Source: a virus
Virus record (IMG/VR): IMGVR_UViG_3300028197_001952
Coordinates: 1 to 64,000 of that record
Direction: 5' to 3' (one strand)
Length of the DNA stretch: 64,000 nucleotides
Part shown: one piece after another, positions 10,160 through 44,880 of the stretch
How the letters are laid out: each line of letters opens with the position of its first letter
How positions within the stretch are numbered: position 1 is the first letter of the stretch
The notes under the pieces: model-generated
What the model was told of the DNA's origin: nothing
Databases searched by the model: none
The model's input: the letters and a program-made list of their open reading frames with translations, nothing else
Position numbers and translations under genes: made by a program

Positions 10160-10738
10160 CTATTTTGAAAGTATTGGATTTGTACAAGGCCATTGCATGT
10201 TAAATTTATTACTATTCCATTTTATTTTTTGTTGTTTATTTAAATCGTTAAATTCGCCATCATATGCGAGTTTACAATTTATGATACTTTCCTCTTTCAT
10301 TACATAATACCCACTTGCAAACATAGGGGGAATTAGTGCTTGAGTACCAGTTTCTGGTGAAAGTATAAAAGATTCGGATTTACCATATTGTGGATTATTA
10401 TTTATATTACCCCCTCTTAAATCTAATACTACTAAATGAATCGTACCATGAATACATGATAATAATTTCCAAGTTTTGTTATCATAATACATTCCTCGTA
10501 AAACTCCATCTTTTGATTTACTGTATGTATCGTGTTTAAATTTTAGACCCATGTTTCTATCAGCTGCTGGTAAAATTCTATCATAATAATCCGAATGATA
10601 TATTGTTGATTCTGAACCACCACGTTCATAATTAGTTGATGGTTGTATTATTTTTACCTGATTTAATATACTTCCATGATAAAAATGAAAATCATTCCAA
10701 TCTCTTTCTTTATAAAATATACTACGTCCTTGTGCCAT
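10160..10738 (-). CDS. rmlC: dTDP-4-dehydrorhamnose 3,5-epimerase family (cupin) protein
   Basis: SKSKDGVLRGM, KLLSCIHGTIHLVVLDLR, LIPPMFASG and the C-terminal WP..PILS motif. Start placed at MAQGR (10738) to avoid a long overlap. Confidence 0.8.
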   Translation of the reverse strand: MAQGRSIFYKERDWNDFHFYHGSILNQVKIIQPSTNYERGGSESTIYHSDYYDRILPAADRNMGLKFKHDTYSKSKDGVLRGMYYDNKTWKLLSCIHGTIHLVVLDLRGGNINNNPQYGKSESFILSPETGTQALIPPMFASGYYVMKEESIINCKLAYDGEFNDLNKQQKIKWNSNKFNMQWPCTNPILSK

Positions 10739-11435
10739 AACTTTGCTTTTGTTTTTTAATAAAGGAATCCCAATCTTCTTGTGTTCCCCAATCAATGAAA
10801 TCTCGTGTACTTCTGTTGAAAAATGTTTTTCCATTTAATAACATCTTAAAAATTACATGTGATATGTAGATTTCTCCTTCTTGTTTTATGGATTCATATG
10901 TATCTACAAATTCCATTGCATCTGAAAATGTGTATAACCCACAACAGAAATCCGATGAAATTACATTCTTCTCCACAATCGTTAAAACTTCACCGCTATC
11001 ATTCTTTTTTATATATGATTTATTTCCAGGTGTTATGTTTGTACAATTATTTAAAGAATATGTACAAACTTCGTTTTTACCAATCTTATCTATTTTAAAA
11101 TAATCATCGGCATCCTTAATAAATATAGAACCTGTTATATTCTTTTTCTCAATTGCCTGTGAAACTGTATCCGATGCACTATGTGTATCGTTTTCAAGTA
11201 GTAATAATTCGAAATTTAAAACATCCTTAAATTGTAAATTTACCAATTCAATAAGTTCACTTGTTAAATGTCTTTTTAATGCAACTATAATAATTCGGTC
11301 AAACGTACTTAATGGTAATCCCTGAATTGATTCGAATACCATTAAATTACCACTCGGGTGTTCAAGTAACCATTTTGGTAGTTCAGTAGTAAATCTACTA
11401 CTTTTACCTGCACATGGTATTATAAGATTTCGCAT
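10722..11435 (-). CDS. Sugar/phosphate nucleotidyltransferase (GT-A NTP-transferase)
   Basis: IIPCAGKSSRF..PKWLL, KDAD, EK..IS, DWGT. Confidence 0.85.
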   Translation of the reverse strand: MRNLIIPCAGKSSRFTTELPKWLLEHPSGNLMVFESIQGLPLSTFDRIIIVALKRHLTSELIELVNLQFKDVLNFELLLLENDTHSASDTVSQAIEKKNITGSIFIKDADDYFKIDKIGKNEVCTYSLNNCTNITPGNKSYIKKNDSGEVLTIVEKNVISSDFCCGLYTFSDAMEFVDTYESIKQEGEIYISHVIFKMLLNGKTFFNRSTRDFIDWGTQEDWDSFIKKQKQSYGTRT

Positions 11436-12169
11436 AACTTATTAATATTAGTTTGTAAATATTTTTTTATTTCAACATCATTCGTATATGGATAAATACG
11501 TTGTAAATTAATTATTTGTAACAATTCATATTTTTCTATTGGATAGTTTTCTACCAACCAATCATCAATATATGATAATCCAAGTTTTATTTTAGATAAA
11601 TCAGTTACACTACTTACCATATTTAAAGACCAGTACAGATGTGTATCTTGTCTTAATTTTACTAAGTCCATAGTTGGTGATTCAATATATGAATCTAAAA
11701 AATCTATTAGATATATTTCATCTGTAAATATCATGTTTGAAAGAGTCATATCTCCATGCGCCAATCCTACCTTTATTCGTATATCAATCTCATTATCTAG
11801 TAGTGGTAACAAAGTATCACCATTTGGTAATGATTTTAATTTATTCTTTAGTATCTGTATTGGTAACGTGGTTTCTCCAATAATACGCTCTTTGAAGTAT
11901 CCATCGAGTTTACGTATTAATCCATCTAAATCTCGTTTAGTTGCTAAAGTAAAGAATTGGGAAAATGATTCTCCTTGGATATATTCCATTAAGAAGGAAT
12001 CATTATTTATTTCAATTACGTTAGGTGATTTAAAGTAATTAGATTTAAATTCTTTTTGTTTTAGTGCAGACTTTACTAACCTAATATCACCAGTTGATGC
12101 AGATTTAGTTACTACGTTTTCATGTAGTTTTAAATTATAATTACTATGTCCTTTTACTTTAAAATCCAC
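11420..12169 (-). CDS. APH/choline kinase-like phosphotransferase
   Basis: MEYIQG, Brenner motif HGDMTLSNM, YLIDF. Confidence 0.8.
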   Translation of the reverse strand: MDFKVKGHSNYNLKLHENVVTKSASTGDIRLVKSALKQKEFKSNYFKSPNVIEINNDSFLMEYIQGESFSQFFTLATKRDLDGLIRKLDGYFKERIIGETTLPIQILKNKLKSLPNGDTLLPLLDNEIDIRIKVGLAHGDMTLSNMIFTDEIYLIDFLDSYIESPTMDLVKLRQDTHLYWSLNMVSSVTDLSKIKLGLSYIDDWLVENYPIEKYELLQIINLQRIYPYTNDVEIKKYLQTNINKLCEIL

Positions 12170-13140
12170 TTGTAATCCTTTAAACTATCTGTAATACACA
12201 ATCTTACCCATTCATCTCCTCTATCAGGTATTATACAATTCTTTCTAAATATAATATCCTCTGGTAATGGTGGTAAATCACTTTCTTTTATATGTAACCA
12301 ATTTGCTTGAGATGGAATTGATTTAATACCTCTATTATATAGTTCTATCATAAGTTTACCTCTCACAGATTTTACTGATTCAATATATTCATCAGCAAAC
12401 TCTTTATTTTTTATCAATGTTTCTACCCACTTATATGTTTGACCTGTTATTTCGTACATATCTCTAAATTGTACCATCTTTTCAATATTCTGTTTTTGAG
12501 AAAATACACATCCAAATCTAGTTCCTGCAGAACCATATGCTTTTGATAAAGTTCTTGTAACATATAAATTGGGATATTTATCAATCAAATCAATACAACT
12601 TTCTTCATCTGAAAATTCTATATATGCTTCATCAACTAAAGTTGGTTGTCCTATATCTAATATCTTAATCAAATCCTCTCTACAAATCACATCACCAATC
12701 GGTGAAGATGGATTTGATAATACTACAATAGAATTACTTGTAATTTTATCAAGGAATTCTAATATTGGAAATTTTATTACATGATATGGAACTTTTACTA
12801 TTTTTGTATCGTGCATTTGTCCATAAACATCGTACATTGGAAATGATGGCTCAGTAACTACTAATCGTTTTTTTCCCCAAAACCAATGTCGGTTTGAGTT
12901 TGCTTCAAAAAAGTATTTTATACATCTGTCAGAACCAAATCCCATAAGAAAATGTTCATATCCATAAAACTCAGTTAATGCTGGTTTTAATTTATTTACA
13001 TTAGGATAAAATTTAATATCTTCTTCTGTTAATGATTTTTTATAATCTTTAAATACCTTTCCCCAAGATGAATTTCTTTCTGCAGAATGTAATCTTAGTT
13101 TATCATGTGGTACTATAGGGTGAAATTTTCTTTTAATCAT
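12154..13140 (-). CDS. PLP-dependent class I/II aminotransferase or decarboxylase (HisC/CobD-like)
   Basis: GSD, NPSSPIG, DEAY, RTLSKAYGSAGTRFG (PLP lysine), SQANW. Confidence 0.88.
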   Translation of the reverse strand: MIKRKFHPIVPHDKLRLHSAERNSSWGKVFKDYKKSLTEEDIKFYPNVNKLKPALTEFYGYEHFLMGFGSDRCIKYFFEANSNRHWFWGKKRLVVTEPSFPMYDVYGQMHDTKIVKVPYHVIKFPILEFLDKITSNSIVVLSNPSSPIGDVICREDLIKILDIGQPTLVDEAYIEFSDEESCIDLIDKYPNLYVTRTLSKAYGSAGTRFGCVFSQKQNIEKMVQFRDMYEITGQTYKWVETLIKNKEFADEYIESVKSVRGKLMIELYNRGIKSIPSQANWLHIKESDLPPLPEDIIFRKNCIIPDRGDEWVRLCITDSLKDYKWILK

Positions 13141-13970
13141 TTGAATCTTCCTTTATAATAATCGTGATTATGTTCTTGTTCTTTATTGAATTTATTAAGT
13201 TCAATATACTGATTCTTCTGACTTAACATTGAGAATCTTTTTATTTCCGATAACATAGATGGTGTCATAGATACTTTTCCATCTCTAGTTTCATCTATTT
13301 CTAATATTGTAAAATGTCTTTCTAGTACATCTATACCTTGGAATATAGCTAATTTTGCAGTAAGTAAATTATCTTCATGTGGATTAGAATGGTCACTATA
13401 ACCAACCTTATCTAAACCAAAATAAAATCTATAAAAGTCTATATTTTGTAAGTTGGCTTTTTCTAAAGGAGTTGGGTAAACACACGTACATCCCAATAAA
13501 TAAAAGTCTATATCCATCTCTTTTAGGTTAGATACGGTTTTACTTATTTCATCTAAAGTTAAACTTGATGCAGAAAAGTATAATGTTTTGAACTTTATAT
13601 CTTTTAATAATTTACCATATCCAAACGCAGGTATTGAGTATCCAGATAGTTTCAAATTATCATAACCCAATGAATTAAAATATTCTGTGTGTCTTGGTGT
13701 GAATAATGTAGTCATAGATTCTACATCATGTTCCTTACATTTATCTATAAAGAATTTTTCATCTTCCCATGATAATTCAATACCCTTTAATCTTTGGTAC
13801 TCTTCCTTATATGGTCTAAACTCTTCATACTCTTCTCTCTTAGTAAACGTATCTGCTTTAATGGATTGTATTTTTAATATATCACTATCCACAGCTGCAA
13901 ACTCTATCATAGATTCTAAAATAGCTCTATCACCATTGTGATTTTGACATAACTCTGAAATTATTTTCAT
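13137..13970 (-). CDS. neuB: NeuB-family nonulosonic acid synthase, lacking the C-terminal SAF/antifreeze-like domain
   Basis: ISELCQNHNG, KIQ, CVYPT, GYSDH, LERHFT; only 277 aa. Confidence 0.85.
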   Translation of the reverse strand: MKIISELCQNHNGDRAILESMIEFAAVDSDILKIQSIKADTFTKREEYEEFRPYKEEYQRLKGIELSWEDEKFFIDKCKEHDVESMTTLFTPRHTEYFNSLGYDNLKLSGYSIPAFGYGKLLKDIKFKTLYFSASSLTLDEISKTVSNLKEMDIDFYLLGCTCVYPTPLEKANLQNIDFYRFYFGLDKVGYSDHSNPHEDNLLTAKLAIFQGIDVLERHFTILEIDETRDGKVSMTPSMLSEIKRFSMLSQKNQYIELNKFNKEQEHNHDYYKGRFK

Positions 13971-13972
13971 AA

Positions 13973-14797
13973 CTAATTCATTTTTTCGATTACTCTATTA
14001 TATGCTTTTTCTTGAGATTCCAATGCAGTACCCCCAACATGTGGTGTTATTATAATTTTATTATTTTTTATTGATAATAAAATAGAATTTTTAACACTAT
14101 GTTCATTTTGGATAACATCAGTTGCATATCCTTTTATTTTATCTTCATCTATTAGAGTTAAAATATCCAATTCATTGATAATCTCTCCTCTACTTGTATT
14201 TACTATATATATTTCTTTTTGGAATTTTGATATATATTTTGAATCTATCATACCAATATTTTCATCACGCAAATCTACATTTATACTTAAGAAATCAGTT
14301 TCATTAAAAAATTGACTATCTGTATAATTTATATCTGATGTGTATACATTTTTAAATATTGGTTTACAGATGTGTTCAATCATTTTTCCTAATCTACCAT
14401 ATCCAAGAATACCAAGAGTTTTTTCATGTAACTCTACAATATTTTTTGTATTTCTTGGTAGTGATAACATTAAATATAAATTGTGTTCGGCAGTTGACCA
14501 TATGTTTTCCAAAACCTTATCATTTTTAATTGAAATAACAGGTATTGATACATCTATATGATTTGTTCCAGTTGATGGGGATACTACCATAGATATTTTT
14601 GTATTTTTTATAAAATCATCTGTTATTTGAAACTTTTGGTAATTTGGTGCAGAAAACAAATAATCACTAGTTTGTATACTATACTTTTGTTCCAATTCTG
14701 TTAAGTCTGATAAATCTAAACACTTGTATTTAGATTCAACATTTTTTTTAAAATTTGGTAAGTGTTTGTATGGTGTTAAAAATGCAATTCGTTTCAT
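13973..14797 (-). CDS. D-isomer-specific 2-hydroxyacid dehydrogenase family
   Basis: STGTNHID, TAEH, GILGYGRLG, NTSRG, ATDV, ITPHVGG. Start placed at MKRIAF (ATGA overlap with the upstream stop). Confidence 0.87.
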   Translation of the reverse strand: MKRIAFLTPYKHLPNFKKNVESKYKCLDLSDLTELEQKYSIQTSDYLFSAPNYQKFQITDDFIKNTKISMVVSPSTGTNHIDVSIPVISIKNDKVLENIWSTAEHNLYLMLSLPRNTKNIVELHEKTLGILGYGRLGKMIEHICKPIFKNVYTSDINYTDSQFFNETDFLSINVDLRDENIGMIDSKYISKFQKEIYIVNTSRGEIINELDILTLIDEDKIKGYATDVIQNEHSVKNSILLSIKNNKIIITPHVGGTALESQEKAYNRVIEKMN

Positions 14798-16206
14798 GGT
14801 GTGTAAAATGATTTTGGTAAAATCCATTCTTTATAGTTTTTACCAGTTTTCCAATATTCATGCTCACAATTTATTATTGCAATTTTATTATCATCACTTC
14901 GTGTCATAGATACTTCAGAATTTATACAAAATAAAAATTCATGTATATCTCTATCATTTATTCCAATTACATGCGTTTCCATATACATACAAATTCCACT
15001 AAAATTATTTTTTGTTACCAACTCTTTCCAACTATCAACGGAAGGTCTAATAAAACATTCATCAAGTGGTGAGTAGTGAGGTTGAAAGATAAAAGTTTTA
15101 GAATTAGAAAATACTTCTTTCAGTAATTTTTTATTTTCATATAAAAAATTGTAATATTTTTGTACTAATTTATATTCATCGGAATTCCATTGATCAGTTT
15201 GATTAGAAATACCCAAATTATTTAAGTTCTGACCAGTGGAAATTATTTCATTATAACTATTATATAAATCTGATATATTTGATTTGTATTTTATGTGATT
15301 TGGATATCCTTTCTTGTGTTTATTATGGTTATAGTATAAATGTTGTTGGTTTATTTTATTTTTATTATCTAACAAGTGTACGTTACTCGTGTATATGTTA
15401 AATCTGTTATTTGATAATAATTTATAAAAGGAATTTATAGATTTTAGTGATTTAGATTTATATGAATCAGATGAATGGTGGCTACGATATACTCCTCCCA
15501 AAAAAGATTTACCTTTAATACTAAAACACTTTAGTATAGTAATATCAAATTCTTTGTGTTTTTTAAATCCCCTATCATAGTCAATACCCTCAATACTTGG
15601 TGTTGAGAAAGTGGCTACTATATTATTTTTATCTACATTAGAATTTGGTCTATAAACTTTAAGTAACTGCTCAATTGTTTCAATTTTTGTAATATAGTTA
15701 CTGACATTCATTTTGACATTATGTTCCTTCTTTACATAAATTAATACGTTTTTTAAATTGGTTCGTGTAAAAACACTACCTTGTGCTCTTGTTTGACCTG
15801 GATGAATTATAAATTCATAATTATCGATTGAATCATCATTAAGATTTATTATTGTATTGTAATGTGATTCATCATTTGGTTTAAAACTTACATGTAGTGG
15901 CAAATTTGTATCGAAATCACAATCAAGTAGTTCATTTACTATATTAATTCGTTGCCTTAATGTATATGGTGCATCACCACGTTCAAAATATTCATCTATA
16001 CGTTTGAATGCATTTGAGTAATCATCAAGTGATTTAAATAATCCTGTATTATCATACATCCAATTATTTCTTACATCGGTATTTGTTGAAGTTTGTGCTC
16101 CACAATCTTTAGCTGCAACTGCCCATGGTAATGATGTAACATGATATATATCTTGTTTTGATAAAATTTCATTTATCATAGATTTATCATACTCTGATAT
16201 AATCAT
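14794..16206 (-). CDS. Hypothetical protein in the glycan cluster
   Basis: 470-aa ORF in operon context; no motif recognised. Confidence 0.7.
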   Translation of the reverse strand: MIISEYDKSMINEILSKQDIYHVTSLPWAVAAKDCGAQTSTNTDVRNNWMYDNTGLFKSLDDYSNAFKRIDEYFERGDAPYTLRQRINIVNELLDCDFDTNLPLHVSFKPNDESHYNTIINLNDDSIDNYEFIIHPGQTRAQGSVFTRTNLKNVLIYVKKEHNVKMNVSNYITKIETIEQLLKVYRPNSNVDKNNIVATFSTPSIEGIDYDRGFKKHKEFDITILKCFSIKGKSFLGGVYRSHHSSDSYKSKSLKSINSFYKLLSNNRFNIYTSNVHLLDNKNKINQQHLYYNHNKHKKGYPNHIKYKSNISDLYNSYNEIISTGQNLNNLGISNQTDQWNSDEYKLVQKYYNFLYENKKLLKEVFSNSKTFIFQPHYSPLDECFIRPSVDSWKELVTKNNFSGICMYMETHVIGINDRDIHEFLFCINSEVSMTRSDDNKIAIINCEHEYWKTGKNYKEWILPKSFYTP

Positions 16207-16215
16207 AATTTATAT

Positions 16216-17142: not shown

Positions 17143-17797
17143 TATATATAAGTTTTGCTAATTTAAAATCCAATTCAGTATCTACATCAATCAGTTCATT
17201 TTCACTCCAATCTATTACAAGTGGAAATGGATTATCTTTTGTATTTGGAAACAATTCCCATTCAGATAACATATGACTTTTTTCATAAAATACTAAAGAG
17301 TGTGTGGCTGAATAAACCCAAGGTCCTGCAGTTGTAGATAATCTATCATTAGCTTTAAAATTTATTGGATTTTTTATTTTATCCCAAAAAAAGTTTCTTT
17401 CTTTCTGAACCGTTATTGCACTTTTGCAATCAGATTGTTTAAACCAATCTATTAATTTCTGCAACTCTTCTACTTTAACAAAAGGTTGACATGGATTATA
17501 ATTAATGATATAATCAGACTTCACTTTATTAAGATGATCATACATTATAGAATGGGGTGCATTTCCAGGTTTAACTGATTCATAACTTCTATGTAATATA
17601 TCAACACCATCTATGATGTGTTCTTTGAGTTCTTCATCATATGCTGCTAGATACTTTTCATCTACATTATTTAATTCAGATAAGTTTGATAATGCAATAT
17701 CAATTAAAGTATTACCATCTCCCAAATTACGTAAATGTTTATTAGGACAACGAGTACTATCTTTTCTAGCGTGTATTATAATTGCTATTGTTTTCAT
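17135..17797 (-). CDS. neuA: Acylneuraminate (CMP-nonulosonate) cytidylyltransferase
   Basis: IHARKDSTRCPNKHLR, PCQPF, IDVDTELDF; NeuB is encoded nearby. Confidence 0.82.
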   Translation of the reverse strand: MKTIAIIIHARKDSTRCPNKHLRNLGDGNTLIDIALSNLSELNNVDEKYLAAYDEELKEHIIDGVDILHRSYESVKPGNAPHSIMYDHLNKVKSDYIINYNPCQPFVKVEELQKLIDWFKQSDCKSAITVQKERNFFWDKIKNPINFKANDRLSTTAGPWVYSATHSLVFYEKSHMLSEWELFPNTKDNPFPLVIDWSENELIDVDTELDFKLAKLIYNE

Positions 17798-22786: not shown

Positions 22787-22789
22787 AAT

Positions 22790-26936: not shown

Positions 26937-27759
26937 TTAAATGTTCTTTTAAATAAGTTGCCCACTTCTGATGTGATAGTTCGGTTGGGTGATGATTATC
27001 AAATAAATCATCTTGTTTATTTTCATTTAGTGTTGTAAGTATAAATTCTTTAAATGTTATATCTAGGAAATTGCTTTTACGTAATTTTATGTATTGTTTT
27101 TTTATTTGAAGATTTTCCGATGAGAATGGTATTCTTTTAATTGCTTTTATTAAATTAACACTATCTAATATACCATGCTTTTGTGGGTCGTTTGTTGCTT
27201 CAAATGTTTCATAAAATGCATCAAAAAATATATGTTTTATATTATGTGAATTTAAGTAAGTATGTATATTGATATTTTGAATTAAGTATCTCATAATATA
27301 CTCTTCTTGATTCCAAAAATAAGTAGTATATAATTTGGTAAATTCTTCAAATCCATTAGATGGTGTATGGATAGCAGGTGATGCTGGATATATAGTTTCC
27401 CACCTACCTGAATCAGATTCATTCATTATATCTTTATAATAGAAATCCTTTCTTTCAGGAGAAGTCCATCCTACTATTACAAAAATTTCATCTGCATTAT
27501 ATTTTTCTAATAAATTTCCAACTTGTGATATTACTCTTTTTTCTATACCATCATTAGATGAACCTGCATGTGAAGTATTACGTACCTCAATATTAGTTAG
27601 TTTTGATAACTTATCCGGCCATACTTTTGGTAATCGGTATGCATCATTATCTCTGTGGTCAATATTTGTGATACCACGTGCTTCTAATTTAGGATCTAAA
27701 ATATCACCTGCTGTCCAACTATCTCCCTCTGTTAGTATTATTTTTATATTATTAGTCAT
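26929..27759 (-). CDS. SGNH-fold protein
   Basis: EGDSWTAG, AGSSN, VGWTSPER, HHPT..H. Start placed at MTNNIK. Confidence 0.72.
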   Translation of the reverse strand: MTNNIKIILTEGDSWTAGDILDPKLEARGITNIDHRDNDAYRLPKVWPDKLSKLTNIEVRNTSHAGSSNDGIEKRVISQVGNLLEKYNADEIFVIVGWTSPERKDFYYKDIMNESDSGRWETIYPASPAIHTPSNGFEEFTKLYTTYFWNQEEYIMRYLIQNINIHTYLNSHNIKHIFFDAFYETFEATNDPQKHGILDSVNLIKAIKRIPFSSENLQIKKQYIKLRKSNFLDITFKEFILTTLNENKQDDLFDNHHPTELSHQKWATYLKEHLNE

Positions 27760-28519
27760 TCCCAACCCATTCGTTTTTGAATAAAACAGGATGATTTCCA
27801 TTACCAGACATATCCATTAACTTATAATAGGTTCGTTTTGAAAAATCACTACAAAATACATTTCTTAAACTAGTCATATATCCCTGTGCTTTTTCTAACC
27901 AAGAATTATAATCAGTAAAGAATTCATTCCAACTCAGCTCATCTGCCTCACTACGTTGAATACTTATTTTTGAAATATCTCCATGAAATATTGATCTGTG
28001 GGTTTCTGCTATTAATGTTGCACAACCTATCCATGTGTAAGAATTTGAATAATCAATTATATTATCATAGTTCATTTTTACAGAATTCTCAGAGGTAGTT
28101 TCTATTAATGTAAATTCTTTTTTATTCACGTTGTGATTTAAAACAACATCATAATATCTGTCTAGTTCATCACCATTAGTACCGAAATCCCAATTTAAAT
28201 CGAACTCCATGCGTTTTTCTACATCCGTTCCTGTTTCGATATCGTGTGACCAAAAAACCCATCCTATTTTTTTGTGTACATTACCTCCTTCTCCCTTATA
28301 TCCGTTATGAAATATTCCAGCATGTTTACCATTCTTTGCAATTATTGCTCCATTGTATACACCTGTTTCTTCTATAATTTTATTTATTTTTTTTACATCT
28401 GGTTTAAATCTACAATATATAGAAAAATCTCCCTTAAGCAAATCTTGCATTTCATGGTTAACTAAATTATACTTATCTCCGTTTGTAAAGAAAAATATTT
28501 TGTTTTCATCTATTATCAT
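27752..28519 (-). CDS. LamG/concanavalin A-like domain protein
   Basis: FSIYCRFK, WIG..FHGDISKI, DMSGNGNH, resembling the LamG inserts in the neighbouring GT7 genes. Confidence 0.55.
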   Translation of the reverse strand: MIIDENKIFFFTNGDKYNLVNHEMQDLLKGDFSIYCRFKPDVKKINKIIEETGVYNGAIIAKNGKHAGIFHNGYKGEGGNVHKKIGWVFWSHDIETGTDVEKRMEFDLNWDFGTNGDELDRYYDVVLNHNVNKKEFTLIETTSENSVKMNYDNIIDYSNSYTWIGCATLIAETHRSIFHGDISKISIQRSEADELSWNEFFTDYNSWLEKAQGYMTSLRNVFCSDFSKRTYYKLMDMSGNGNHPVLFKNEWVGND

Positions 28520-29949
28520 AATTTTATAGTTTGTGTTTGTTCGTAAAAATCTGCCAGTTCTGGATAAACTTCTTTAAAATTAGTTTCTCTACGTCTATCA
28601 TGTTCTTTAAAAAACACTCCAAAATCACGTCTTTGTTTTAATAACTCTTCTTCATTTCTATCGGTAAGCATCCAATCATATGTTCTTTTTACTTTTTGTA
28701 TCTCAACATCAGAATATCCAACGTGTTGATGTTCAAATTTTGGAATACCGAGATAATTCATATGACTTGCTGCATCTTTTATTTTTATAGCCCATTCTTC
28801 TGGTAAAATCTTTACAGTTTGGTGTTTAGGATATCGTAAATAAGATGTATCTAAAAATACTGCAGAGTTCCAATATCTATCACTTGAAGTGTATTTCATC
28901 TTTAAACCATAAATATAATCTATTAATTCTTTATAACTTGGTACTGATAGTGCATTAAAAGTTGACATTACTGTGATACTAATTCGTTTACAACTTGAAA
29001 GAATTTTATTTACATTTTTATCAAACTGTTCCCAATTTAATCCGTTTCTAATGTACTCTGCTTGTTCTCCATACCCATCAACTGATGTGAATATAATAAA
29101 TTCTTCTACAAGTTCCTTTTCTTCAATTGCTTGAATCTTTTCTATTAATCTATCAACTAATTTATCAGGAATTCCTAAATTAGAATTTATTGCTAATCTT
29201 AATTTTTTATTTGGGTTAGGTTCGTTTATAATATAATCTAAAACTCCCCAAGTATCTTTACTCATAAGTGGTTCTCCACCTGTGATTCTAAAAGTATGTA
29301 AATCTCTATATAAATCTGGCCACCATCTCCAAAATGCTTCTACATAAGGATTTTCTTCTGTATGTAATATAGGAACTTTACCCTCTCCAATCAAACCTTC
29401 CAAATCATTAAATTTATCAAGTGTTGGATATGCTCCTTCTGCTTTTATTTCTTGCATCCATGCTGATGAAAACGAAGGTCCACAATATGAACATTTAAAG
29501 TTACAAGCATTTGAGAAAGCAACTTCTACATATTTTGGATTATAATCTCCTCTCCAGCCCAAATCTTTAATTTCTTGCATATGAGGAAGTGACCAAGATT
29601 CTGCTGATTTAAATACTCTATCTGAAAACTGAGGTGATGCATCTTCAACATCCCAACAATAATGACACTCTTCAGGCCTTCCACCTTCTAACATTTCTTT
29701 ACGAATACGTTTTTTAAAACGTGTGTTGTGTAGTGCAGAAGGATTTCGTTTTATCTCACTTTCATTTATCTTATGTGTTGTTGGGTGATGACAAGAATGA
29801 GTATGTCCCATTTGTAAGTGAATTGTAACTTGTGTCCATTTAGCTAAACAGAATCCACATCCTTGTGCATCAAGTTCTTTTTTGGTATTCACATATATTG
29901 GATTGTTAGCAAAAGCTAAAGAAGGATCTAATTTTGGAGTTTCACTCAT
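28516..29949 (-). CDS. Radical SAM protein with N-terminal twitch-like Cys cluster
   Basis: CLAKW..HSCHH..CHYCW; CNFKCSYC; ITGGEPL; SVDG..AEYIRNG. Confidence 0.9.
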   Translation of the reverse strand: MSETPKLDPSLAFANNPIYVNTKKELDAQGCGFCLAKWTQVTIHLQMGHTHSCHHPTTHKINESEIKRNPSALHNTRFKKRIRKEMLEGGRPEECHYCWDVEDASPQFSDRVFKSAESWSLPHMQEIKDLGWRGDYNPKYVEVAFSNACNFKCSYCGPSFSSAWMQEIKAEGAYPTLDKFNDLEGLIGEGKVPILHTEENPYVEAFWRWWPDLYRDLHTFRITGGEPLMSKDTWGVLDYIINEPNPNKKLRLAINSNLGIPDKLVDRLIEKIQAIEEKELVEEFIIFTSVDGYGEQAEYIRNGLNWEQFDKNVNKILSSCKRISITVMSTFNALSVPSYKELIDYIYGLKMKYTSSDRYWNSAVFLDTSYLRYPKHQTVKILPEEWAIKIKDAASHMNYLGIPKFEHQHVGYSDVEIQKVKRTYDWMLTDRNEEELLKQRRDFGVFFKEHDRRRETNFKEVYPELADFYEQTQTIKL

Positions 29950-31421
29950 AATTTTACGTTTATTAATTTTGCTTTTGTTGATATTTCTTCAATATCTAAT
30001 AACTCATATTTCAATTGTTTGATACCATCTGATTTATAATCCCATGTTCCTTGTTGCATCTCGTGGATGTATCTTTTCTCGTTTCGAGCAGTAGTTTCTC
30101 CCTTTGCCCATACATCGTTTCCACTTGAATCTTTAATCATTCCTTCATCTTGATGTGGTAAACAATTCATTTTACCATCTTTACGATGAGGTATAATAGT
30201 ATGTGGAATTTTAATTTTTTCTTTATTAAACATTCCTCTTGTTATTTTACCATTTATACCATTACCACTTAAATCAATGGCCATTCTCGTTGAATTAACT
30301 TGTTCTTTGTTGTTAAAATCATAATGTAACACGAGTTTATCAGTTGAGATTTCCTTATGTAATTTTGAAATTTCATTAGAATCTAAACATCGATTCCACA
30401 TCATTACTTTAGCTATATCACCCTTAAACCATTTGTTTGGTTCTGTTCTAGCAGTTGAGGTTGTTGTTCCTAAATAATAATCATCTAATCCATATGATTT
30501 TAATCTATCTTCATATTTAAGTGGTGATTGTGTGCCATGACCATGTCTTGCATCTGATTCTTTTCCATTTAAATAGAAATGTATATTTTGTTTAGATGTA
30601 TCAACACTTAGTGTAATCCATGCCCATTGGTTTTCATATCTTTTTATCCATTGATATAAATGATTCTGAGTACTATCCCATAATTGAGCAGTATATGCTC
30701 TTGAATTATTATAACTCAATCCATAATCATATCCTGGTCTTCTTAGAATTGGATATTCACAAAATCTTCTATCTTCATCACCTATTAACCAAATTGGAAC
30801 TTTTTCTTCTTGTTGATTTGCTCTTACTAAAACGGAAATTGTATGTGAACGAGATGTTAATGATTTTAATTTTTTATGTTTTGGTATTTTTACAAAACTG
30901 TTTTTACCATTAAATGATAAGTAGTTATTTAATGTACCTGAGTAATCAAGATAAGTATTATTTGCATATCCCTCTAAATTACATCTCCAAAATAAATCAT
31001 CATCTTCCATTCCCCAATCCCAATAATCATTTGAATAACCATTAGTTTTTTCTACTTGTTCTTTTGAAAATAAAACTGCTCCTCCAAAGTATTCTTCATA
31101 CTTTAGATTATAATCCATTTGAGATATTGAAGTTGCAATATGTATTGGAGTTGTTTTAGGAAACGAATAATCAGCACCTCCCCCGTCTTCAGGTATCATA
31201 TCGATATCATGCCAAACAATATAATCACACCCATCTTCAAACGCATGTTTAGCAGCAACATTTTTCATAGCTCCCCTATTAAAAAGTTTATCATCACATT
31301 GATGACCAAAGTACATACAATACTCTATTCCTTTAGAGTCCAAATATGCTCCTACTTTTGGTACAAACTCTTTTAAATGAGCTTCTCTGTTTCTATAAGG
31401 AACACAAACTCCTAGTTTCAT
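29946..31421 (-). CDS. GT7 (beta-1,4-galactosyltransferase-like) glycosyltransferase with inserted LamG domain
   Basis: VPYRNR, FNRG, HDID, FGGA, NGYSN.YWDWGMEDDDL; then LamG motifs (FNGKNS, FYLNG, FKGDIAKVMMWNR, DLSGNG); then the GT7 C-terminal segment. Confidence 0.85.
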   Translation of the reverse strand: MKLGVCVPYRNREAHLKEFVPKVGAYLDSKGIEYCMYFGHQCDDKLFNRGAMKNVAAKHAFEDGCDYIVWHDIDMIPEDGGGADYSFPKTTPIHIATSISQMDYNLKYEEYFGGAVLFSKEQVEKTNGYSNDYWDWGMEDDDLFWRCNLEGYANNTYLDYSGTLNNYLSFNGKNSFVKIPKHKKLKSLTSRSHTISVLVRANQQEEKVPIWLIGDEDRRFCEYPILRRPGYDYGLSYNNSRAYTAQLWDSTQNHLYQWIKRYENQWAWITLSVDTSKQNIHFYLNGKESDARHGHGTQSPLKYEDRLKSYGLDDYYLGTTTSTARTEPNKWFKGDIAKVMMWNRCLDSNEISKLHKEISTDKLVLHYDFNNKEQVNSTRMAIDLSGNGINGKITRGMFNKEKIKIPHTIIPHRKDGKMNCLPHQDEGMIKDSSGNDVWAKGETTARNEKRYIHEMQQGTWDYKSDGIKQLKYELLDIEEISTKAKLINVKL

Positions 31422-31831
31422 ATTGTATCTGATATTAGCTTTTTAAACTTGGTTGTACTCCAACCATGTGAACGGTCTATCCAATGAATAAGTATACCCA
31501 AATCTTTTCCTGTATATGGATTATCTATATAATCCTCTCCTAAAAATCTTACATCAGGATTAATTGATTTTAATAAAAAATATAACTCTTCTTCGGTATC
31601 ATAAGTTAAGAAAGTAGGATTGGTAAAAAAATATTTTAACATACTCTTACGTTCTTCTGTATTTAAGATTGGTTTTAATTTTTCAGGTCTTTGTATTTGT
31701 GGATTATCATGTAACAAAATATATTGGTTCGTACATTTATTATTCATCTCTTCAAATAGCTGGATATAACCTGGATGTATCACATCAAAGTTTCCACAAA
31801 TTACTCCTATTTCTAATTTACTTACTTCCAT
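31418..31831 (-). CDS. TagD-like cytidylyltransferase (HIGH family)
   Basis: GNFDVIHPGY, KPI...ER, LGEDY, RSHGWSTT. Confidence 0.82.
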   Translation of the reverse strand: MEVSKLEIGVICGNFDVIHPGYIQLFEEMNNKCTNQYILLHDNPQIQRPEKLKPILNTEERKSMLKYFFTNPTFLTYDTEEELYFLLKSINPDVRFLGEDYIDNPYTGKDLGILIHWIDRSHGWSTTKFKKLISDTI

Positions 31832-33261
31832 AGTTCTACTGATATAAAATAATAATTATCCATTTTTGTATCTGATAATAATTTAAATCTAACATTATCA
31901 ATTCCATCTCGTTTATAATCAGATTTTCCGTTTAATACTTTGTTATAAAAATGTAATTGATTTTTTCTTGTATCTGTCCAAGTCCATTTGTTTTCATAGA
32001 ATCCATTTTCTTTATGATATAACAATTCAAAGGTAGAATCTCTTCTCCATGGTATTGGTATTGACATAAAATCATTAACTTGTTGAATTGGTACTTTACC
32101 ACAATCCATAACTTCGGCAGTTCTACCTTTTCGGTTTCCACTTAAGTCAGGAATACTAGAATAAGTTGCAGTTTTCATATCATAACATACTTCAAGAGTA
32201 TGTGGTACAATATAATCACCAAATGCTTCTGTAAGACCCATTGATTTGTTTGTAGATATTTCCTTAATTTGAGCTTCCTCTAGTGAATGATTAAACATTG
32301 CGAAATAATCAACTGTTCCACCGAAAGGTCTTCTATTATTAAATTCCAATGAAGGAGAATCACCCAAGTACATCTTCTTTTCAGAAGCATAGTTTAATAA
32401 CTTACCAGGAAATTCAATTAAATCTATTAGTTCACCATCTTGATAAAATTTAATAACATTATCATCTTGATTTACAGTAACACATAATGTAGTTTGCTTT
32501 GGAGGAGATATGTTTGATTTTAAACTTATACACTCTTTATCGGTATTAAATACTTCAAATTTATATCTTTTATATGAATTATAAGAAAAACTTAAATCAT
32601 ATCCAGGAATACAGAAAAGATTATACTCATCTGATGGGAATCCTTCGTTACATTGAATTTCATTTGGTTCAAAAGAACATAATATAGTGTAGTTTTTTAA
32701 CCTAAAAGGTTTAGGCATAGTAACCTTACTAGTATATCCATTGAGTTCTAATGCAGCTGAAGAGTGTGAATTTAATGGTAGTTCTTTTGTGTTAAAATCA
32801 GTAAAGTTTTCCTTACATCTCCAAAGTAAATCATCATCCTCATAACCCCATCCCCAATATTTGTTAGAATACCCATTTATATGATAATAATCATTTATTG
32901 GAAACATAGTAACACCACCAAAATATTCATCAAAAACAATACGTTTCTGCTTTTTGTAGTGGTTTGATGTGAAATCAGTTGCAAGATGTGTAGGTCTATC
33001 TACTATCGAATAATCGACCTCTGAACTTGGTATCATGTCAACATCATGTAGTACTACATAGTTACACCCAAGTTCCTTAGCTTTATTCACACCTATGTTT
33101 AATAGAGAACCTCGATTGAACGGAAGTTCATCGGATTGTTCTACTATAATCAATTCATAATCTATCTTAGATTTATTGAAATGATTTTTTATAGATGTTG
33201 TAAAGTGATTTAGGTGCGTTCTACGATTCCTATATGGTACAATGATACCAAGTTTATTCAT
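31822..33261 (-). CDS. GT7 glycosyltransferase with inserted LamG domain (paralog)
   Basis: VPYRNR, FNRG, HDVD, FGGV, NGYSNKYWGWGYEDDDL; LamG motifs (FYQDG, FGGTVDYFAMFN, DLSGN). Confidence 0.85.
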   Translation of the reverse strand: MNKLGIIVPYRNRRTHLNHFTTSIKNHFNKSKIDYELIIVEQSDELPFNRGSLLNIGVNKAKELGCNYVVLHDVDMIPSSEVDYSIVDRPTHLATDFTSNHYKKQKRIVFDEYFGGVTMFPINDYYHINGYSNKYWGWGYEDDDLLWRCKENFTDFNTKELPLNSHSSAALELNGYTSKVTMPKPFRLKNYTILCSFEPNEIQCNEGFPSDEYNLFCIPGYDLSFSYNSYKRYKFEVFNTDKECISLKSNISPPKQTTLCVTVNQDDNVIKFYQDGELIDLIEFPGKLLNYASEKKMYLGDSPSLEFNNRRPFGGTVDYFAMFNHSLEEAQIKEISTNKSMGLTEAFGDYIVPHTLEVCYDMKTATYSSIPDLSGNRKGRTAEVMDCGKVPIQQVNDFMSIPIPWRRDSTFELLYHKENGFYENKWTWTDTRKNQLHFYNKVLNGKSDYKRDGIDNVRFKLLSDTKMDNYYFISVELWK

Positions 33262-33271
33262 CGATACTTAT

Positions 33272-33457
33272 TTATTTTTTTAGAGGTTTGATTGTACTCT
33301 CATACCACTCAGACATGTACCACTCTAATCTGGGACCCCATGCTTCTTTATCAATCTCTTCTACCCACAATGTAAGTGCATCTAAGGAATTACCGATTTT
33401 TTCAAGTGCTTTTACTTTTCTTTCTTCTAAAATTTGTGAAGTTTCATCTTTTGCCAT
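33272..33457 (-). CDS. Small hypothetical protein
   Basis: 61-aa ORF with its own upstream ATATTTATA motif. Confidence 0.6.
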   Translation of the reverse strand: MAKDETSQILEERKVKALEKIGNSLDALTLWVEEIDKEAWGPRLEWYMSEWYESTIKPLKK

Positions 33458-33497
33458 AACGTAAATTAATTAATTGTTTTTGTTTTTGTTTGTTGTA

Positions 33498-33506
33498 TAT
33501 AAATAT
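33498..33506 (-). promoter_or_regulatory. ATATTTATA motif (putative phage late promoter)
   Basis: 40 nt upstream of the 33457 start; heads the GT7 operon. Confidence 0.6.
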
Positions 33507-33514
33507 ATAAATTA

Positions 33515-34363
33515 CTAAATTTTAATAATTTTTCTTGCTAATCTATTCCACTTTGAGTAATCGAAATGAAAATTACTTTCCATTTTTTCTAGCATAAATT
33601 CAGGATTGTTAATATCAATTTTCCAATCGTTAATCTGAATAGCCTTGTACATCTTTTTATACTCTTCCCAAAAGGAATATTTTTCTTCAGTTTCAGAAAC
33701 TTCTTTTAATCGTTCTAAAACGGTTGAATCCCACTTAAAGTGATGAACTTGTATAAATCCTTCACCTCTACCAATTGGGTATCTGAGAGGATGTTTAAAT
33801 CCCTTCTTACCCCATACATGAGATTTGTTTATGATTGCATAATGTTGACCAGGTGTTACATCCACCGAACCTTTCATTATACAAACTTTATTTGGACAAG
33901 CACCACTCATTGGATATCTAAAAAATCCAGCGAGTGGAAACTCACTCCATATATTAGTTTCTTTTGTCACCAAAGGAAACTCTCCGTTCTCTCCTATCCT
34001 ATCGAGAAAACCTCCTGTAATGAATTCCCATCCACCCTTTTCACAATCAGAAATCATTTCTCTGATTGGTTTGGGGTAAATATGGAATTCATCATCATCC
34101 GAAACCACCCACCATTCAAGGGGCTTGGTTCGTTTAATTTCGTTATATAATTGAGTTACTCTTTCCCAATTAAATTTTTCTTCTGTTACTACTTTATGTG
34201 GGGTTATTCCGAGGGATTTTATTTCATCTAAAATGCCATCGTTTTCATGTTGTCTATAAACAACAACATAAATTTCATCAACAATGTTTTTGTAGTGTTC
34301 CAACATATGTGGAAGCATTGTGATGTTATGACCAACAACTGTTACAAGATTTATCCTTTGCAT
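33515..34363 (-). CDS. GT-A fold (GT2-like) glycosyltransferase
   Basis: LPHMLEHY, WWVVSDDDEF (DxD), PGQH, VHHFKW. Confidence 0.72.
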   Translation of the reverse strand: MQRINLVTVVGHNITMLPHMLEHYKNIVDEIYVVVYRQHENDGILDEIKSLGITPHKVVTEEKFNWERVTQLYNEIKRTKPLEWWVVSDDDEFHIYPKPIREMISDCEKGGWEFITGGFLDRIGENGEFPLVTKETNIWSEFPLAGFFRYPMSGACPNKVCIMKGSVDVTPGQHYAIINKSHVWGKKGFKHPLRYPIGRGEGFIQVHHFKWDSTVLERLKEVSETEEKYSFWEEYKKMYKAIQINDWKIDINNPEFMLEKMESNFHFDYSKWNRLARKIIKI

Positions 34364-35130
34364 TTCTGAATAAATGTTATTCCAGTTGATGATGGTCTAT
34401 TTCTAAGTATACCATTATTAAAAAAGTTGAAAATTTCCCACTCTTTACTTTCTTTTAATTCGGTTATAAGTTTAGAAGGTCCGTTTGAATACTCTTGGTG
34501 AAAATCATCAAGAATATCATCTGAAATAATATGTTCTTTTTCATATGATGAGTCGGTATCGTGAATTGTTATTATACCATGTGGTGAAAGTAGTGTTGAA
34601 TATAAGTCAAAATCATTCTTTACATCTTCATAAGTATGACCTGCATCAATATGTAAAAAATCTATTTTAATATCTTCTTTTACAAAAAAGTTATAGTATG
34701 CATTTTCTGTTGTATCTAATATAAATCTACAGGGAAACTTTTTTCTAAAATATGAATTTTTATCAATCCAATCTGTAAATCCACCAACTCCATTGGATGC
34801 ATCTACTAATATAGTTGTTCCACTATCACCCCATTCCATTGATTTATTACCATCAAATATTTCTTGCTCATGTAAATCAATTCTAGCTTGGGATATAATT
34901 CTTGGAATAAATCCCCCACCACTTCCTAAACATACACAAGTTTTTGCTCTCATATATTGTATGGCAGTATATATTAACATACCATCTCCTAGATGTTTAT
35001 CAGTAGCTCCATGAGTCCATCGATATTTAACAGGAGTTAATTCATCATATATCTTACCATTAACATCAATAGATTCTATTCTATTATTGGTAAAGTATTC
35101 TTTTATAAGATTGTAGTTGATTATACTCAT
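34351..35130 (-). CDS. Class I SAM-dependent methyltransferase (Methyltransf_24-like)
   Basis: VCLGSGGG, IDFLHIDAGHTYE, GIITIHD. Confidence 0.85.
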   Translation of the reverse strand: MSIINYNLIKEYFTNNRIESIDVNGKIYDELTPVKYRWTHGATDKHLGDGMLIYTAIQYMRAKTCVCLGSGGGFIPRIISQARIDLHEQEIFDGNKSMEWGDSGTTILVDASNGVGGFTDWIDKNSYFRKKFPCRFILDTTENAYYNFFVKEDIKIDFLHIDAGHTYEDVKNDFDLYSTLLSPHGIITIHDTDSSYEKEHIISDDILDDFHQEYSNGPSKLITELKESKEWEIFNFFNNGILRNRPSSTGITFIQKCKG

Positions 35131-35144
35131 TATATATAAGTATA

Positions 35145-35153
35145 TATAAATAT
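35145..35153 (-). promoter_or_regulatory. ATATTTATA motif (putative phage late promoter)
   Basis: 14 nt upstream of the methyltransferase start at 35130. Confidence 0.6.
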
Positions 35154-35170
35154 ATTAAACAATAAATTAA

Positions 35171-36364
35171 TTACGAAATATATGAATTAATATTTTTTAT
35201 CCAAGTTTCTCTATTATCAAAAGTAAGCATATACGTTTTTAGTTTAGCAAACTCGGTATATCTTTGTTGGTGTGTATCTTTACGTATCTGTTTAATACAA
35301 ATATCAAATTCATTTTTTGTTGATGCTCTATATTTGTAATCAACATCCTTTGCCCAATCTGTGTGAATGATTGGTAACTTACCATAATCTATTGCTTGAA
35401 ATATTGAATAACCAAATGGTTCTTTGAAGTATGCCCCATGGAAGATACCAAAATCCTTTCTCATGAAAGAATCAAGAATTTGTGGAGACCATTGATAAAA
35501 TTTAATATTAGGAAACGTATAACTAGTAGTATCTCTTAAATTAACAAAATCATATTTACCAGATAAAATAAATCCACCATGTCCATGCATCCAATGCATA
35601 CATTTTCTTGTTTCAGCTCTAGAAGCAAATCCTATGTTTTTAAAATTTAGATTTTCGTTAAATGAAATATTGTGTTTAAATTCATAAAAATTAGGAACGG
35701 AATAGGTGTAATTTGGAAAATCATCTGTAAGTTGTGTTGGGTTATTTCCTACCCAAATTCTTTTGTCAAATGATTGTACAAATTCTTTATAGAAAGCAGA
35801 ATCAACTTTTGTATTAAATTGTAATCTTTTTAATTCTGGCATATGTGTTAGAACTTCTTCCATTTCACTTGGATATGCATGAACAAATAATAATTTAAAT
35901 TTGTTTTCATATTTCCAAATGTGTTCTCTTTTATGATAATGTGAATGCAAATAATATATCTCTGAACATTCTTCTAACAAATCAGTTGTTATTTCATGGT
36001 CATCTCCATGAAAATGCCAATCCAAATCCTCTGGTAAAGATGATGGGTCAAAGTCAACAGGTCTTTTTGAATCAATTAATAATTTCCAATGTTTTCTCCA
36101 TTTAATTCCTTTCCAAATATTTTTTATAAAATGATTTGTCCAAATATCAGCACCACCTTCTATAGTATTACCACAACCAGTAGTAATCATTAGTTTCTTA
36201 CCCATTTTTTTACCATCGGTTGGATTTCTTAATCTTTCTTCAAATGGAAGTTCATTATTAATTTTTGAAACCAACACATCAGTATCTATAAATTCATCTG
36301 AGTTTATTAGGTAATTTACTAACGAAGATGTTAGTTCTTTTTTTTCTTTTTTATATAACTTCAT
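35171..36364 (-). CDS. GT-B (GT4-like) glycosyltransferase
   Basis: GGADIW, GFASRAETRK, EPFGYSIFQAIDYGKLPI. Start placed at MKLYKK. Confidence 0.72.
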   Translation of the reverse strand: MKLYKKEKKELTSSLVNYLINSDEFIDTDVLVSKINNELPFEERLRNPTDGKKMGKKLMITTGCGNTIEGGADIWTNHFIKNIWKGIKWRKHWKLLIDSKRPVDFDPSSLPEDLDWHFHGDDHEITTDLLEECSEIYYLHSHYHKREHIWKYENKFKLLFVHAYPSEMEEVLTHMPELKRLQFNTKVDSAFYKEFVQSFDKRIWVGNNPTQLTDDFPNYTYSVPNFYEFKHNISFNENLNFKNIGFASRAETRKCMHWMHGHGGFILSGKYDFVNLRDTTSYTFPNIKFYQWSPQILDSFMRKDFGIFHGAYFKEPFGYSIFQAIDYGKLPIIHTDWAKDVDYKYRASTKNEFDICIKQIRKDTHQQRYTEFAKLKTYMLTFDNRETWIKNINSYIS

Positions 36365-36375
36365 TAATTTTGTTT

Positions 36376-44853: not shown

Positions 44854-44871
44854 AGAAATATATCTTTCCAA

Positions 44872-44880
44872 TATAAATAT
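44872..44880 (-). promoter_or_regulatory. ATATTTATA motif (putative phage late promoter)
   Basis: 18 nt upstream of the giant fibre gene start at 44853. Confidence 0.6.

Follow-up and report, generated by a model that had tools for sequence, protein, structure and literature searches.

Several viruses carry large gene sets for glycan synthesis. Clade-specific glycan clusters in the Megavirinae, which comprise 9–12 genes in Mimivirus and 21 genes including sulfate metabolism in Cotonvirus, serve to decorate the fibrils (PMC9614988). The cyanomyoviruses S-SCSM2R, S-SCSM1 and P-SSM2 have 22-gene "cell wall synthesis and modification" sets with 13 glycosyltransferases (GTs), TagD, KdsA/B, RmlC and epimerases (PMC12801897). 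Mycobacteriophage virion glycans (Freeman et al. 2023, Cell Host Microbe, also cited in PMC12801897) are placed at the C-termini of capsid and tail-tube subunits, as cited in PMC12619734; the "moraphages", aquatic jumbo phages of 200–307 kb that are set outside the T4 group, have four core GT orthogroups whose role is left unresolved there (PMC12619734). Here we describe a ~26-kb glycan cluster in the first 64,000 nucleotides (the window) of IMG/VR record IMGVR_UViG_3300028197_001952. While large sugar-gene sets are already known from cyanomyoviruses and giant viruses, the new element is a conserved core of GT7-LamG glycosyltransferases linked to a gene for a fibre-like protein, of which no published account was found in the literature. 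The gene-cluster observation is robust, and the phage's own virion is a plausible target of the glycan.

The contig behind the window, which comprises its first 64 kb, is linear, measures 77.6 kb and has no terminal repeat; CheckV puts the completeness of the genome at ~41%. Every gene is coded on the minus strand, and the G+C content is ~29%. The phage type was assessed from two genes at the start of the window:

3–956, minus strand, T4-type portal (Pfam Portal_T4)
1414–3003, minus strand, terminase large subunit (TerL), 55% identical to TerL of Microcystis phage Mel-JY01 and Flavobacterium phage immuto

Four complete IMG/VR relatives (G001–G004) measure 245–289 kb, two of them with terminal repeats, and their TerL proteins are 69–91% identical to that of the window. 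The T4-type portal, the TerL and the size of these relatives mark the contig as part of the genome of an uncultured T4-like jumbo phage. Marine metagenomes of at least 11 studies contain near-identical DNA (0.94–0.98 of sampled words). Relatives of the cluster were taken from 204 IMG/VR stretches found with the GT7-LamG protein (contigs up to 289 kb), and the conservation counts below refer to 80 of these 204 loci, which were searched locally by tblastn with every protein of the window.

Listing of open reading frames (ORFs) gave 29 minus-strand ORFs from 10160 to 36385, to which a 61-amino-acid (aa) ORF (33272–33457) was added because it is kept in 76 of the 80 loci. Thus, the stretch holds 30 genes, 21 of whose 29 junctions overlap, in agreement with a preliminary description of ~30 co-oriented, often overlapping genes in ~26 kb. 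It is not one block; it is made of three units and a closing RmlC-like gene:

27752–36385, minus strand, core, syntenic in ~60–80 of the 80 loci and in every case immediately following a giant Ser/Thr/Gly-rich fibre-like gene
17798–27801, minus strand, variable island, common as a whole only to the 92%-identical contig L001/L087
10722–17797, minus strand, NeuB-type ulosonic-acid module, with its central part syntenic in ~50 other phage contigs

The gene order of the core in relatives is fibre-like gene, GT4-like GT, methyltransferase, GT2, 61-aa ORF, GT7-LamG, twitch radical SAM, 255-aa protein, 427-aa-type GT-B and RmlC-like gene, and this order is kept among loci at 58–92% identity. Each related locus has two or three GT7-LamG copies, sometimes with TagD alongside. 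In the window, the core genes and the closing gene are:

35171..36385, minus strand, GT4-like GT-B glycosyltransferase of 404 aa, abutting the fibre gene (63/80 loci; AlphaFold2 model with pLDDT, the predicted local distance difference test, of 86)
34351..35130, minus strand, SAM methyltransferase (Pfam Methyltransf_24; 73/80 loci)
33515..34363, minus strand, GT2-like glycosyltransferase (Glyco_tranf_2_4, 27.8 bits against a cut-off of 27.5; 74/80 loci)
33272..33457, minus strand, 61-aa helical protein between GT2 and GT7, directly after a promoter-like motif (tblastn)
31822..33261, minus strand, GT7 (beta-1,4-galactosyltransferase-like) with a LamG/ConA-like lectin domain, copy 1 (Pfam 7N 7e-19, 7C 4e-16, Laminin_G_3 8e-9)
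31418..31831, minus strand, TagD-like cytidylyltransferase (Pfam CTP_transf_like 3.5e-9; 24/80 loci)
29946..31421, minus strand, GT7-LamG glycosyltransferase, copy 2, the most conserved lineage marker (Pfam)
28516..29949, minus strand, twitch-domain radical SAM protein (NF033640, 354.8 bits against a cut-off of 170; 77/80 loci)
27752..28519, minus strand, weakly conserved 255-aa protein (ORF and tblastn)
10160..10834, minus strand, RmlC-like cupin of the dTDP-4-dehydrorhamnose 3,5-epimerase family, closing gene (Pfam 4e-23; 47/80 loci), with its true start probably near residue 32

Both GT7 genes score above the Pfam gathering scores (55–68 bits for Glyco_transf_7N and 59–68 bits for 7C), and copy 2 as a marker corresponds to 1617 protein clusters in metagenomes. 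The 404-aa protein, for which the ATG at 36364 is the likely start, has an EX7E-like motif (KEPFGYSIFQAVDYGKLPII), and Foldseek matched its model to PimA, MshA, BshA, WaaG, T4 AGT and Gtf3 at E-values of 3e-9 and weaker. The claim of eight to nine GTs was only partly borne out: five are supported (the two GT7-LamG proteins, the GT2-like protein and, by fold, the 404-aa protein and a 427-aa GT-B protein of the variable island), and the rest are not. A supposed "RPD-type" GT pair at 22790 and 24025 are paralogues (E 6e-8), yet match no family; two "GT-B types" of 316 and 282 aa were negative in hhalign comparisons with the two GT-B families; and a "free LamG" protein (27752–28519) reached only E 0.12 by BLASTP to the LamG part of GT7.

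Among 50,697 cultured or deposited phage records, neither megablast with the cluster nor tblastn with the GT7-LamG and GT2 proteins gave a match. For the twitch radical SAM protein, a 39%-identical homologue in Ralstonia jumbo phage RsoM2USA was the sole match in phage records spanning most of the protein, and two Vibrio phages match 64% of it at ~22% identity.

We also looked at the fibre-like gene upstream of the core along with candidate transcription signals:

36376..44871, minus strand, fibre-like protein of 2831 aa, Ser/Thr/Gly-rich (26% Ser plus Thr, ~230-aa internal repeats and a collagen-like GDDGDPGDDGDPG stretch)
44872..44880, minus strand, ATATTTATA heading the fibre gene, following an intrinsic terminator at 45067–45044
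35145..35153, minus strand, ATATTTATA heading the methyltransferase-GT2 unit (motif search)
33498..33506, minus strand, ATATTTATA heading the unit of the 61-aa ORF and GT7 (motif search)

The fibre-like protein probably starts at the Met at residue 7; relatives keep its N-terminal ~545 aa and differ in the remainder. It has no Pfam or PHROG match and no homology to the tail fibre of immuto; PHROGs likewise gave no match for the other large flanking and tail proteins. The motif (A)TATTTATA stands at the head of the units of the fibre, the cluster, the terminase and the portal. Of 12 matches to ATATTTATA, 11 are on the coding strand and 10 are intergenic; the raw count is not above chance in AT-rich DNA, and the signal is the bias in strand and position. 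The motif sits immediately before the fibre gene, the methyltransferase-GT2 unit, the GT7 unit, a gene for an 1853-aa polyprotein, and the TerL and portal units. In relatives, 20 of 69 loci have TATTTATA ahead of the methyltransferase orthologue, and 20 of 80 have it ahead of the first GT7, against a background of 0.15 per kb. The proposal that the cluster operons are headed by the same motif as the structural genes is thus supported, with the position kept in relatives. A good minus-strand intrinsic terminator stands at 45067–45044 before the fibre unit, and none was found on that strand between 44880 and 10160. Because of this shared candidate promoter motif and the terminator-free stretch, the cluster is likely co-expressed with the fibre and packaging genes, and its expression would be late. 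Cluster sequence was also found at 99–100% identity in RNA-library contigs of two marine studies, which cover parts of the cluster and indicate its presence, not strand, level or start of transcription. A second, TTTCGTATATTA-like motif occurs upstream of a primase/SbcC unit and of another unit (window 49198–49323, contig 73944–74020) and may represent an earlier promoter class distinct from ATATTTATA.

The next question is where the product of such a cluster would go. No cluster protein has a predicted membrane segment (no 19-residue window above a Kyte-Doolittle value of 1.26), and no multi-pass membrane protein was found on the whole 77.6-kb contig. In G001–G004, no match was obtained for priming phosphoglycosyl transferases (Bac_transf PF02397 and Glycos_transf_4 PF00953, with controls positive in 10/14 and 12/14 genomes), nor for Polysacc_synt (Wzx) PF01943, Wzy_C PF04932 or ABC2_membrane PF01061, whose controls were also positive; across the export-gene searches, positive controls were found in 10–14 of 14 genomes. 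A surface polysaccharide locus dependent on Wzx/Wzy or on an ABC transporter was rejected, as priming, flippase, polymerase/ligase and permease genes are absent in G001–G004. The Kyte-Doolittle scan and the four relatives therefore agree with the preliminary description, which had noted no flippase, polymerase, ABC exporter or membrane-spanning protein, and its cytoplasmic pathway is likewise upheld because all predicted enzymes are soluble.

Soluble enzymes could still act on the host envelope if the phage remodels it. Phage nucleotide sugars would then extend or decorate host lipid-linked precursors (lipopolysaccharide (LPS), capsule or the general O-glycan of Bacteroidota-type hosts), and the host's own priming enzyme, flippase and ligase would export the product; the altered surface could block superinfection or the adsorption of progeny to debris. 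Many LPS and capsule GTs are indeed soluble or peripheral, the variable island resembles a serotype-type hypervariable region, and the low G+C content of the cluster fits acquired genes; in addition, the sugar-gene sets of S-SCSM2R, S-SCSM1 and P-SSM2 are read as host-surface modification (PMC12801897). However, the core is kept at 58–92% identity in phages presumably of different hosts, its position is tied to a phage structural gene, and neither the contig nor the four complete relatives encode a Gtr-type protein, a priming GT or a flippase. The inferred late expression with fibre and packaging genes would also leave little time for surface turnover. We consider host-envelope remodelling unlikely, though far from negligible.

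The variable DNA of the locus is found between the radical SAM and RmlC genes. These two genes lie ~3 kb apart in most relatives as compared with ~18 kb in the window, and the 92%-identical L001/L087 is the only other contig that holds the entire insert (10722–27801). The G+C content is 25–28% across the variable modules (window 10000–28000) versus 30–37% in the flanks, which is consistent with separately acquired DNA. The variable island contains:

18648, 26163 and 26929, minus strand, three DUF6071/SGNH-like proteins (one solid and two weak matches), all with GDS-type N-termini
24896–26179, minus strand, GT-B glycosyltransferase of 427 aa (GT-B fold; pLDDT 71; VIA Z ~10 against many GT-B enzymes)
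22790 and 24025, minus strand, paralogous 276/294-aa pair
22010–22786, minus strand, probable sulfotransferase (ESM Atlas 0.95 to Stf0/Sulfotransfer_3 clusters, and a P-loop-like HYRSGGT loop)
20290–21063, minus strand, truncated Ugd-like dehydrogenase of 257 aa (N-terminal and central domains present, C-terminal domain absent)
17798–18661, minus strand, 287-aa family protein with an invariant G-x-H-R, linked to Sulfotransfer_2

and the NeuB-type module contains:

17135, minus strand, cytidylyltransferase of the cytidine monophosphate (CMP)-ulosonate type (CTP_transf_3, 42.8 bits against a cut-off of 22.6)
16216, minus strand, radical SAM-SPASM protein (Pfam/NCBIfam)
14794, minus strand, 470-aa protein with no family assigned (ORF)
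13973, minus strand, D-2-hydroxyacid dehydrogenase (Pfam/NCBIfam)
13137, minus strand, NeuB without a SAF domain (Pfam NeuB, 110 bits against a cut-off of 22)
12154, minus strand, HisC/CobD-like pyridoxal phosphate (PLP) enzyme (Pfam/NCBIfam)
11420, minus strand, small APH/Bud32-like kinase (weak Pfam/NCBIfam match)
10722, minus strand, NTP-transferase-like protein (weak Pfam/NCBIfam match)

The island also codes for the 153-aa, 316-aa and 282-aa proteins, to which no family is assigned, and its 427-aa GT-B family recurs in relatives. For the unassigned cluster proteins, PDB searches with phmmer and profiles and Pfam scans of family members gave nothing usable, nor did the ESM Atlas offer a usable lead for the 470-aa protein. 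Several enzymes named in the preliminary description have Pfam or NCBIfam support, namely RmlC, the NeuA-type and TagD-like transferases, NeuB, the PLP enzyme, the dehydrogenase, the methyltransferase and both radical SAM proteins. Others stood in part: Ugd keeps its N-terminal and central domains and lacks the third; the kinase and NTP-transferase have matches, both weak; one of the three SGNH proteins is solid; and the sulfotransferase at 22010–22786 is probable, as a lead only.

The ulosonic-acid pathway is marked by a NeuB-type synthase, which condenses phosphoenolpyruvate, and a CMP-activating cytidylyltransferase. The former scores under the NCBIfam equivalog cut-offs for NeuB and PseI, and the closest NCBIfam models of the latter, KdsB and PseF, are both under cut-off. 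Among the cluster ORFs, no Pfam or NCBIfam match was found to NeuC, PseB/PseC or a LegB/LegC-type dehydratase, aminotransferase or epimerase; in place of these canonical precursor enzymes there are the 2-hydroxyacid dehydrogenase, the HisC/CobD-like PLP enzyme, the radical SAM-SPASM protein and the 470-aa protein. As judged from these predicted enzymes, the pathway is non-canonical. Overall, NeuB with its CMP-transferase, the TagD-like enzyme, two sulfotransferases (the probable one above and a Pfam-supported one outside the cluster), the methyltransferase, the SGNH-like proteins and a carbamoyltransferase support the prediction of a complex, acidic, decorated glycan, as the preliminary description had suggested for the pathway product.

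The distribution of the modules bears on whether they share one acceptor. In ~50 other contigs the NeuB module, with the order NeuA-like, radical SAM-SPASM, PLP enzyme, 470-aa protein, 2-hydroxyacid dehydrogenase, NeuB and SGNH-like, sits near terminase genes, and it was not found in G001–G004, which carry the core. This independent distribution, together with the several members that have no assigned function (the 470-aa and 287-aa proteins and the 276/294-aa pair), would fit mixed targets, with the modules serving different acceptors (for example, the core acting on virion proteins and the NeuB module on host or soluble molecules) or with a free or secreted oligosaccharide or a small-molecule glycoside as the product. 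We regard this as improbable, since all modules lie in one terminator-free, co-oriented stretch between the core and the conserved RmlC gene, a placement that is most simply explained by one pathway with variable outer parts.

Soluble GTs near packaging genes could also modify the phage DNA, by glycosylating hydroxylated or hydroxymethylated pyrimidines shortly before packaging and thereby blocking host nucleases. Late, multi-sugar glycosylation of phage DNA with dedicated nucleotide-sugar genes is established (PMC13326640; bioRxiv 10.1101/2023.12.21.572611), the cluster is near packaging genes, and the structures matched by both modelled GT-B proteins include the T4 alpha- and beta-glucosyltransferases. 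All four relatives carry a ThyA homologue, as does the contig:

contig 77078–77599 (L085), minus strand, ThyA homologue cut by the contig end, with canonical motifs (profile match)

A second, weak ThyA-like ORF (20–27 bits) in G002 and G003 might be a pyrimidine hydroxymethylase. However, the ThyA homologue looks canonical (PFNIASY and GDTHLYSNH; 300–316 bits in full-length copies), and two of the core-bearing relatives lack the second ORF. T4 AGT and BGT are matched only as generic members of the GT-B fold, with no sequence-level relation, and a Tet_JBP search, which had no positive control, gave no match. Moreover, we know of no DNA-modification precedent for GT7-LamG, NeuB, sulfotransferases, SGNH-like proteins or a carbamoyltransferase. 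DNA hypermodification is improbable in our estimate, the least likely of the targets considered.

A glycan on the phage's own virion proteins is the reading that we favour, if somewhat short of an even chance. Circumstantial evidence favours a phage-encoded acceptor: the conserved core, its fixed place beside the Ser/Thr-rich fibre gene and the motif common to structural and packaging genes. The cluster would be transcribed with the fibre gene from this phage-specific motif. The conserved core (GT4-like GT, O-methyltransferase, GT2, two or three GT7-LamG copies, TagD-like enzyme, twitch radical SAM, GT-B and RmlC-like protein) would make a lineage-wide core glycan, and swappable modules would add the outer parts, with NeuB and the CMP-transferase providing an ulosonic acid and the island contributing a GT-B, a sulfotransferase, SGNH-like proteins and a dehydrogenase. 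Together, the two modules would yield strain-specific outer sugars and anionic or ester decorations. Synthesis of the glycan would precede virion assembly and take place in the cytoplasm, with Ser/Thr-rich fibre or tail proteins as the direct acceptors; the 2831-aa fibre-like protein is the candidate acceptor. The order of steps, the identities of the sugars and the acceptor are all part of this reconstruction. The joining of a GT-A domain to a lectin domain recalls polypeptide GalNAc-transferases, by analogy only.

The tripeptide [S/T]-[G/A]-S, a proposed acceptor motif, is above composition in the fibre-like protein and in proteins of 1798, 407, 384 and 353 aa (z 3–6). Compared with shuffles, the 384-, 407- and 353-aa proteins of the tail module have 4 to 9 times as many copies and the 1798-aa protein ~3 times as many; the genes of these four proteins lie at 50625–53089, 53864–59260 and 62666–63727. 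The 407-, 384- and 353-aa proteins are taken as tail proteins because their immuto orthologues sit between baseplate wedge and tail fibre genes, and their orthologues in G001–G004 show the same enrichment. In immuto, however, these orthologues are equally enriched, and no homologues of GT7-LamG, GT2 or the GT4-like protein were found there. The tripeptide therefore does not count as an acceptor sequon of this system and was rejected as evidence for it.

Beyond the equal enrichment in immuto, several points weigh against a virion glycan or are neutral to it. The evidence for a glycan on protein is circumstantial. The product of 36376–44871 is named a fibre by inference, since no family matched, and late timing is read from the motif. 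The RNA-library contigs could be DNA carry-over. Export genes were found absent in four relatives that lack the variable modules, and the window's own genome is ~41% complete. The GT-B fold matches are generic, spanning T4 DNA glucosyltransferases and protein- and lipid-acting enzymes, and soluble GTs commonly act on host-provided lipid-linked acceptors. Late timing is also compatible with DNA modification (PMC13326640). A bolder form of the virion proposal is that a lectin-guided GT7-LamG system coats the giant tail fibre and other tail proteins with the core glycan, and that swappable modules (ulosonic acid, sulfate, esters, carbamate) produce a strain "virion serotype", a phage glycocalyx like the mimivirus fibrils, made with a radical-SAM-dependent, non-canonical ulosonic pathway. 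This we find tentative and rather doubtful.

Tailoring genes outside the cluster and its downstream neighbour were also identified:

49766..50344, minus strand, Sulfotransfer_2 gene beside tail genes (Pfam)
contig 70572–72275 (L086 6572–8275), minus strand, NodU-type carbamoyltransferase, adjoining the glycan cluster in relative L046
contig 75459–76424 (L086 11459–12424), minus strand, short SAM synthetase, elsewhere on the contig
4412–9973, minus strand, 1853-aa enzyme polyprotein with cytidylyltransferase-like, HD and CCA/poly(A)-polymerase domains

A natural fusion, P0194 (490 aa), joins a Sulfotransfer_2 domain to the 287-aa family of gene 17798–18661, and genes of these two families are adjacent in L117; the outlying sulfotransferase is therefore tied to the cluster. 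The carbamoyltransferase and SAM synthetase are probably auxiliary to the tailoring of the glycan and to radical SAM and methyl chemistry. A SegE-like GIY-YIG homing endonuclease gene (49324–49809) lies between the Sulfotransfer_2 and primase genes. Downstream of the cluster, the 1853-aa polyprotein is followed by TerL and the T4-type portal; it carries enzyme domains and is not a tail fibre. Its modules are separate genes, in shuffled order, in the NeuB-bearing relatives L126, L128 and L131.

If the glycan is on the virion, open-ocean tailed phages would spend ~10% of a 250-kb genome on a self-made sugar coat, which would affect how they adsorb, aggregate, stick to marine gels, are grazed and escape host receptors or nucleases. 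Because the lineage is common, as the metagenomic studies and marker-GT clusters above indicate, this chemistry would be relevant to the ecology of marine viruses. Several kinds of enzyme in the cluster have no relatives that have been studied: GT7-LamG, the NF033640 twitch radical SAM, the SAF-less NeuB with its unusual partners and several families that have no Pfam model.

In gene content, the closest described systems are the 22-gene sugar sets of large cyanomyoviruses (PMC12801897). They likewise belong to large marine T4-like phages and hold many GTs, TagD, RmlC, a CMP-ulosonate (Kdo) pathway and epimerases. Their genes, however, are read as host-surface or DNA modification, GT7-LamG was not among the 50,697 phage records, and a constant association with a fibre gene sets the present lineage apart. 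Identity with the moraphages was not established: they have DnaK in 8 of 25 genomes, whereas it is absent from G001–G004, and the present phage has a T4-type portal and TerL. Phage DNA hypermodification systems (T4 AGT/BGT; RB69 and DLP3 with arabinosyl-5hoC, PMC13326640) share soluble GTs, nucleotide-sugar genes, late action and a ThyA homologue in the genome, but the ThyA here is canonical-looking, and GT7-LamG, NeuB and the sulfotransferase are unlike known DNA-modifying sets.

Animal GT27 GalNAc-transferases and GT7 beta4Gal-transferases resemble GT7-LamG in joining a GT-A domain (Glyco_transf_7N, 7C) to a lectin-type domain, and the GT27 lectin design directs dense O-glycosylation of Ser/Thr-rich proteins. 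The phage proteins differ in that their lectin is LamG/ConA-like, not ricin-B, and in being cytoplasmic with no signal anchor. In mycobacteriophage virion O-glycosylation, phage GTs act in the cytoplasm on structural proteins of the same phage, as proposed here for the virion glycan, reportedly with only a few GT genes as compared with ~30 genes in this cluster.

In logic, the closest systems are the Megavirinae clusters and chlorovirus capsid glycosylation (PMC9614988), followed by the mycobacteriophages. Like the Megavirinae and chloroviruses, the present phage has virus-coded nucleotide-sugar pathways, several soluble GTs and methyltransferases in clustered genes; like the Megavirinae, it shows lineage-specific content around a common core, with bacterial-type sugars and acidic products predicted. 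Its own nucleotide-sugar enzymes are thus clustered with several soluble GTs, and clade-specific genes surround the shared core, as in giant viruses. In the Megavirinae and chloroviruses the product coats fibrils or the capsid without the host secretory route, whereas here it is predicted from gene content. Finally, unlike the Megavirinae, this is a tailed bacteriophage whose genes overlap in operon-like units and whose core combines GT7-LamG with a twitch radical SAM protein.

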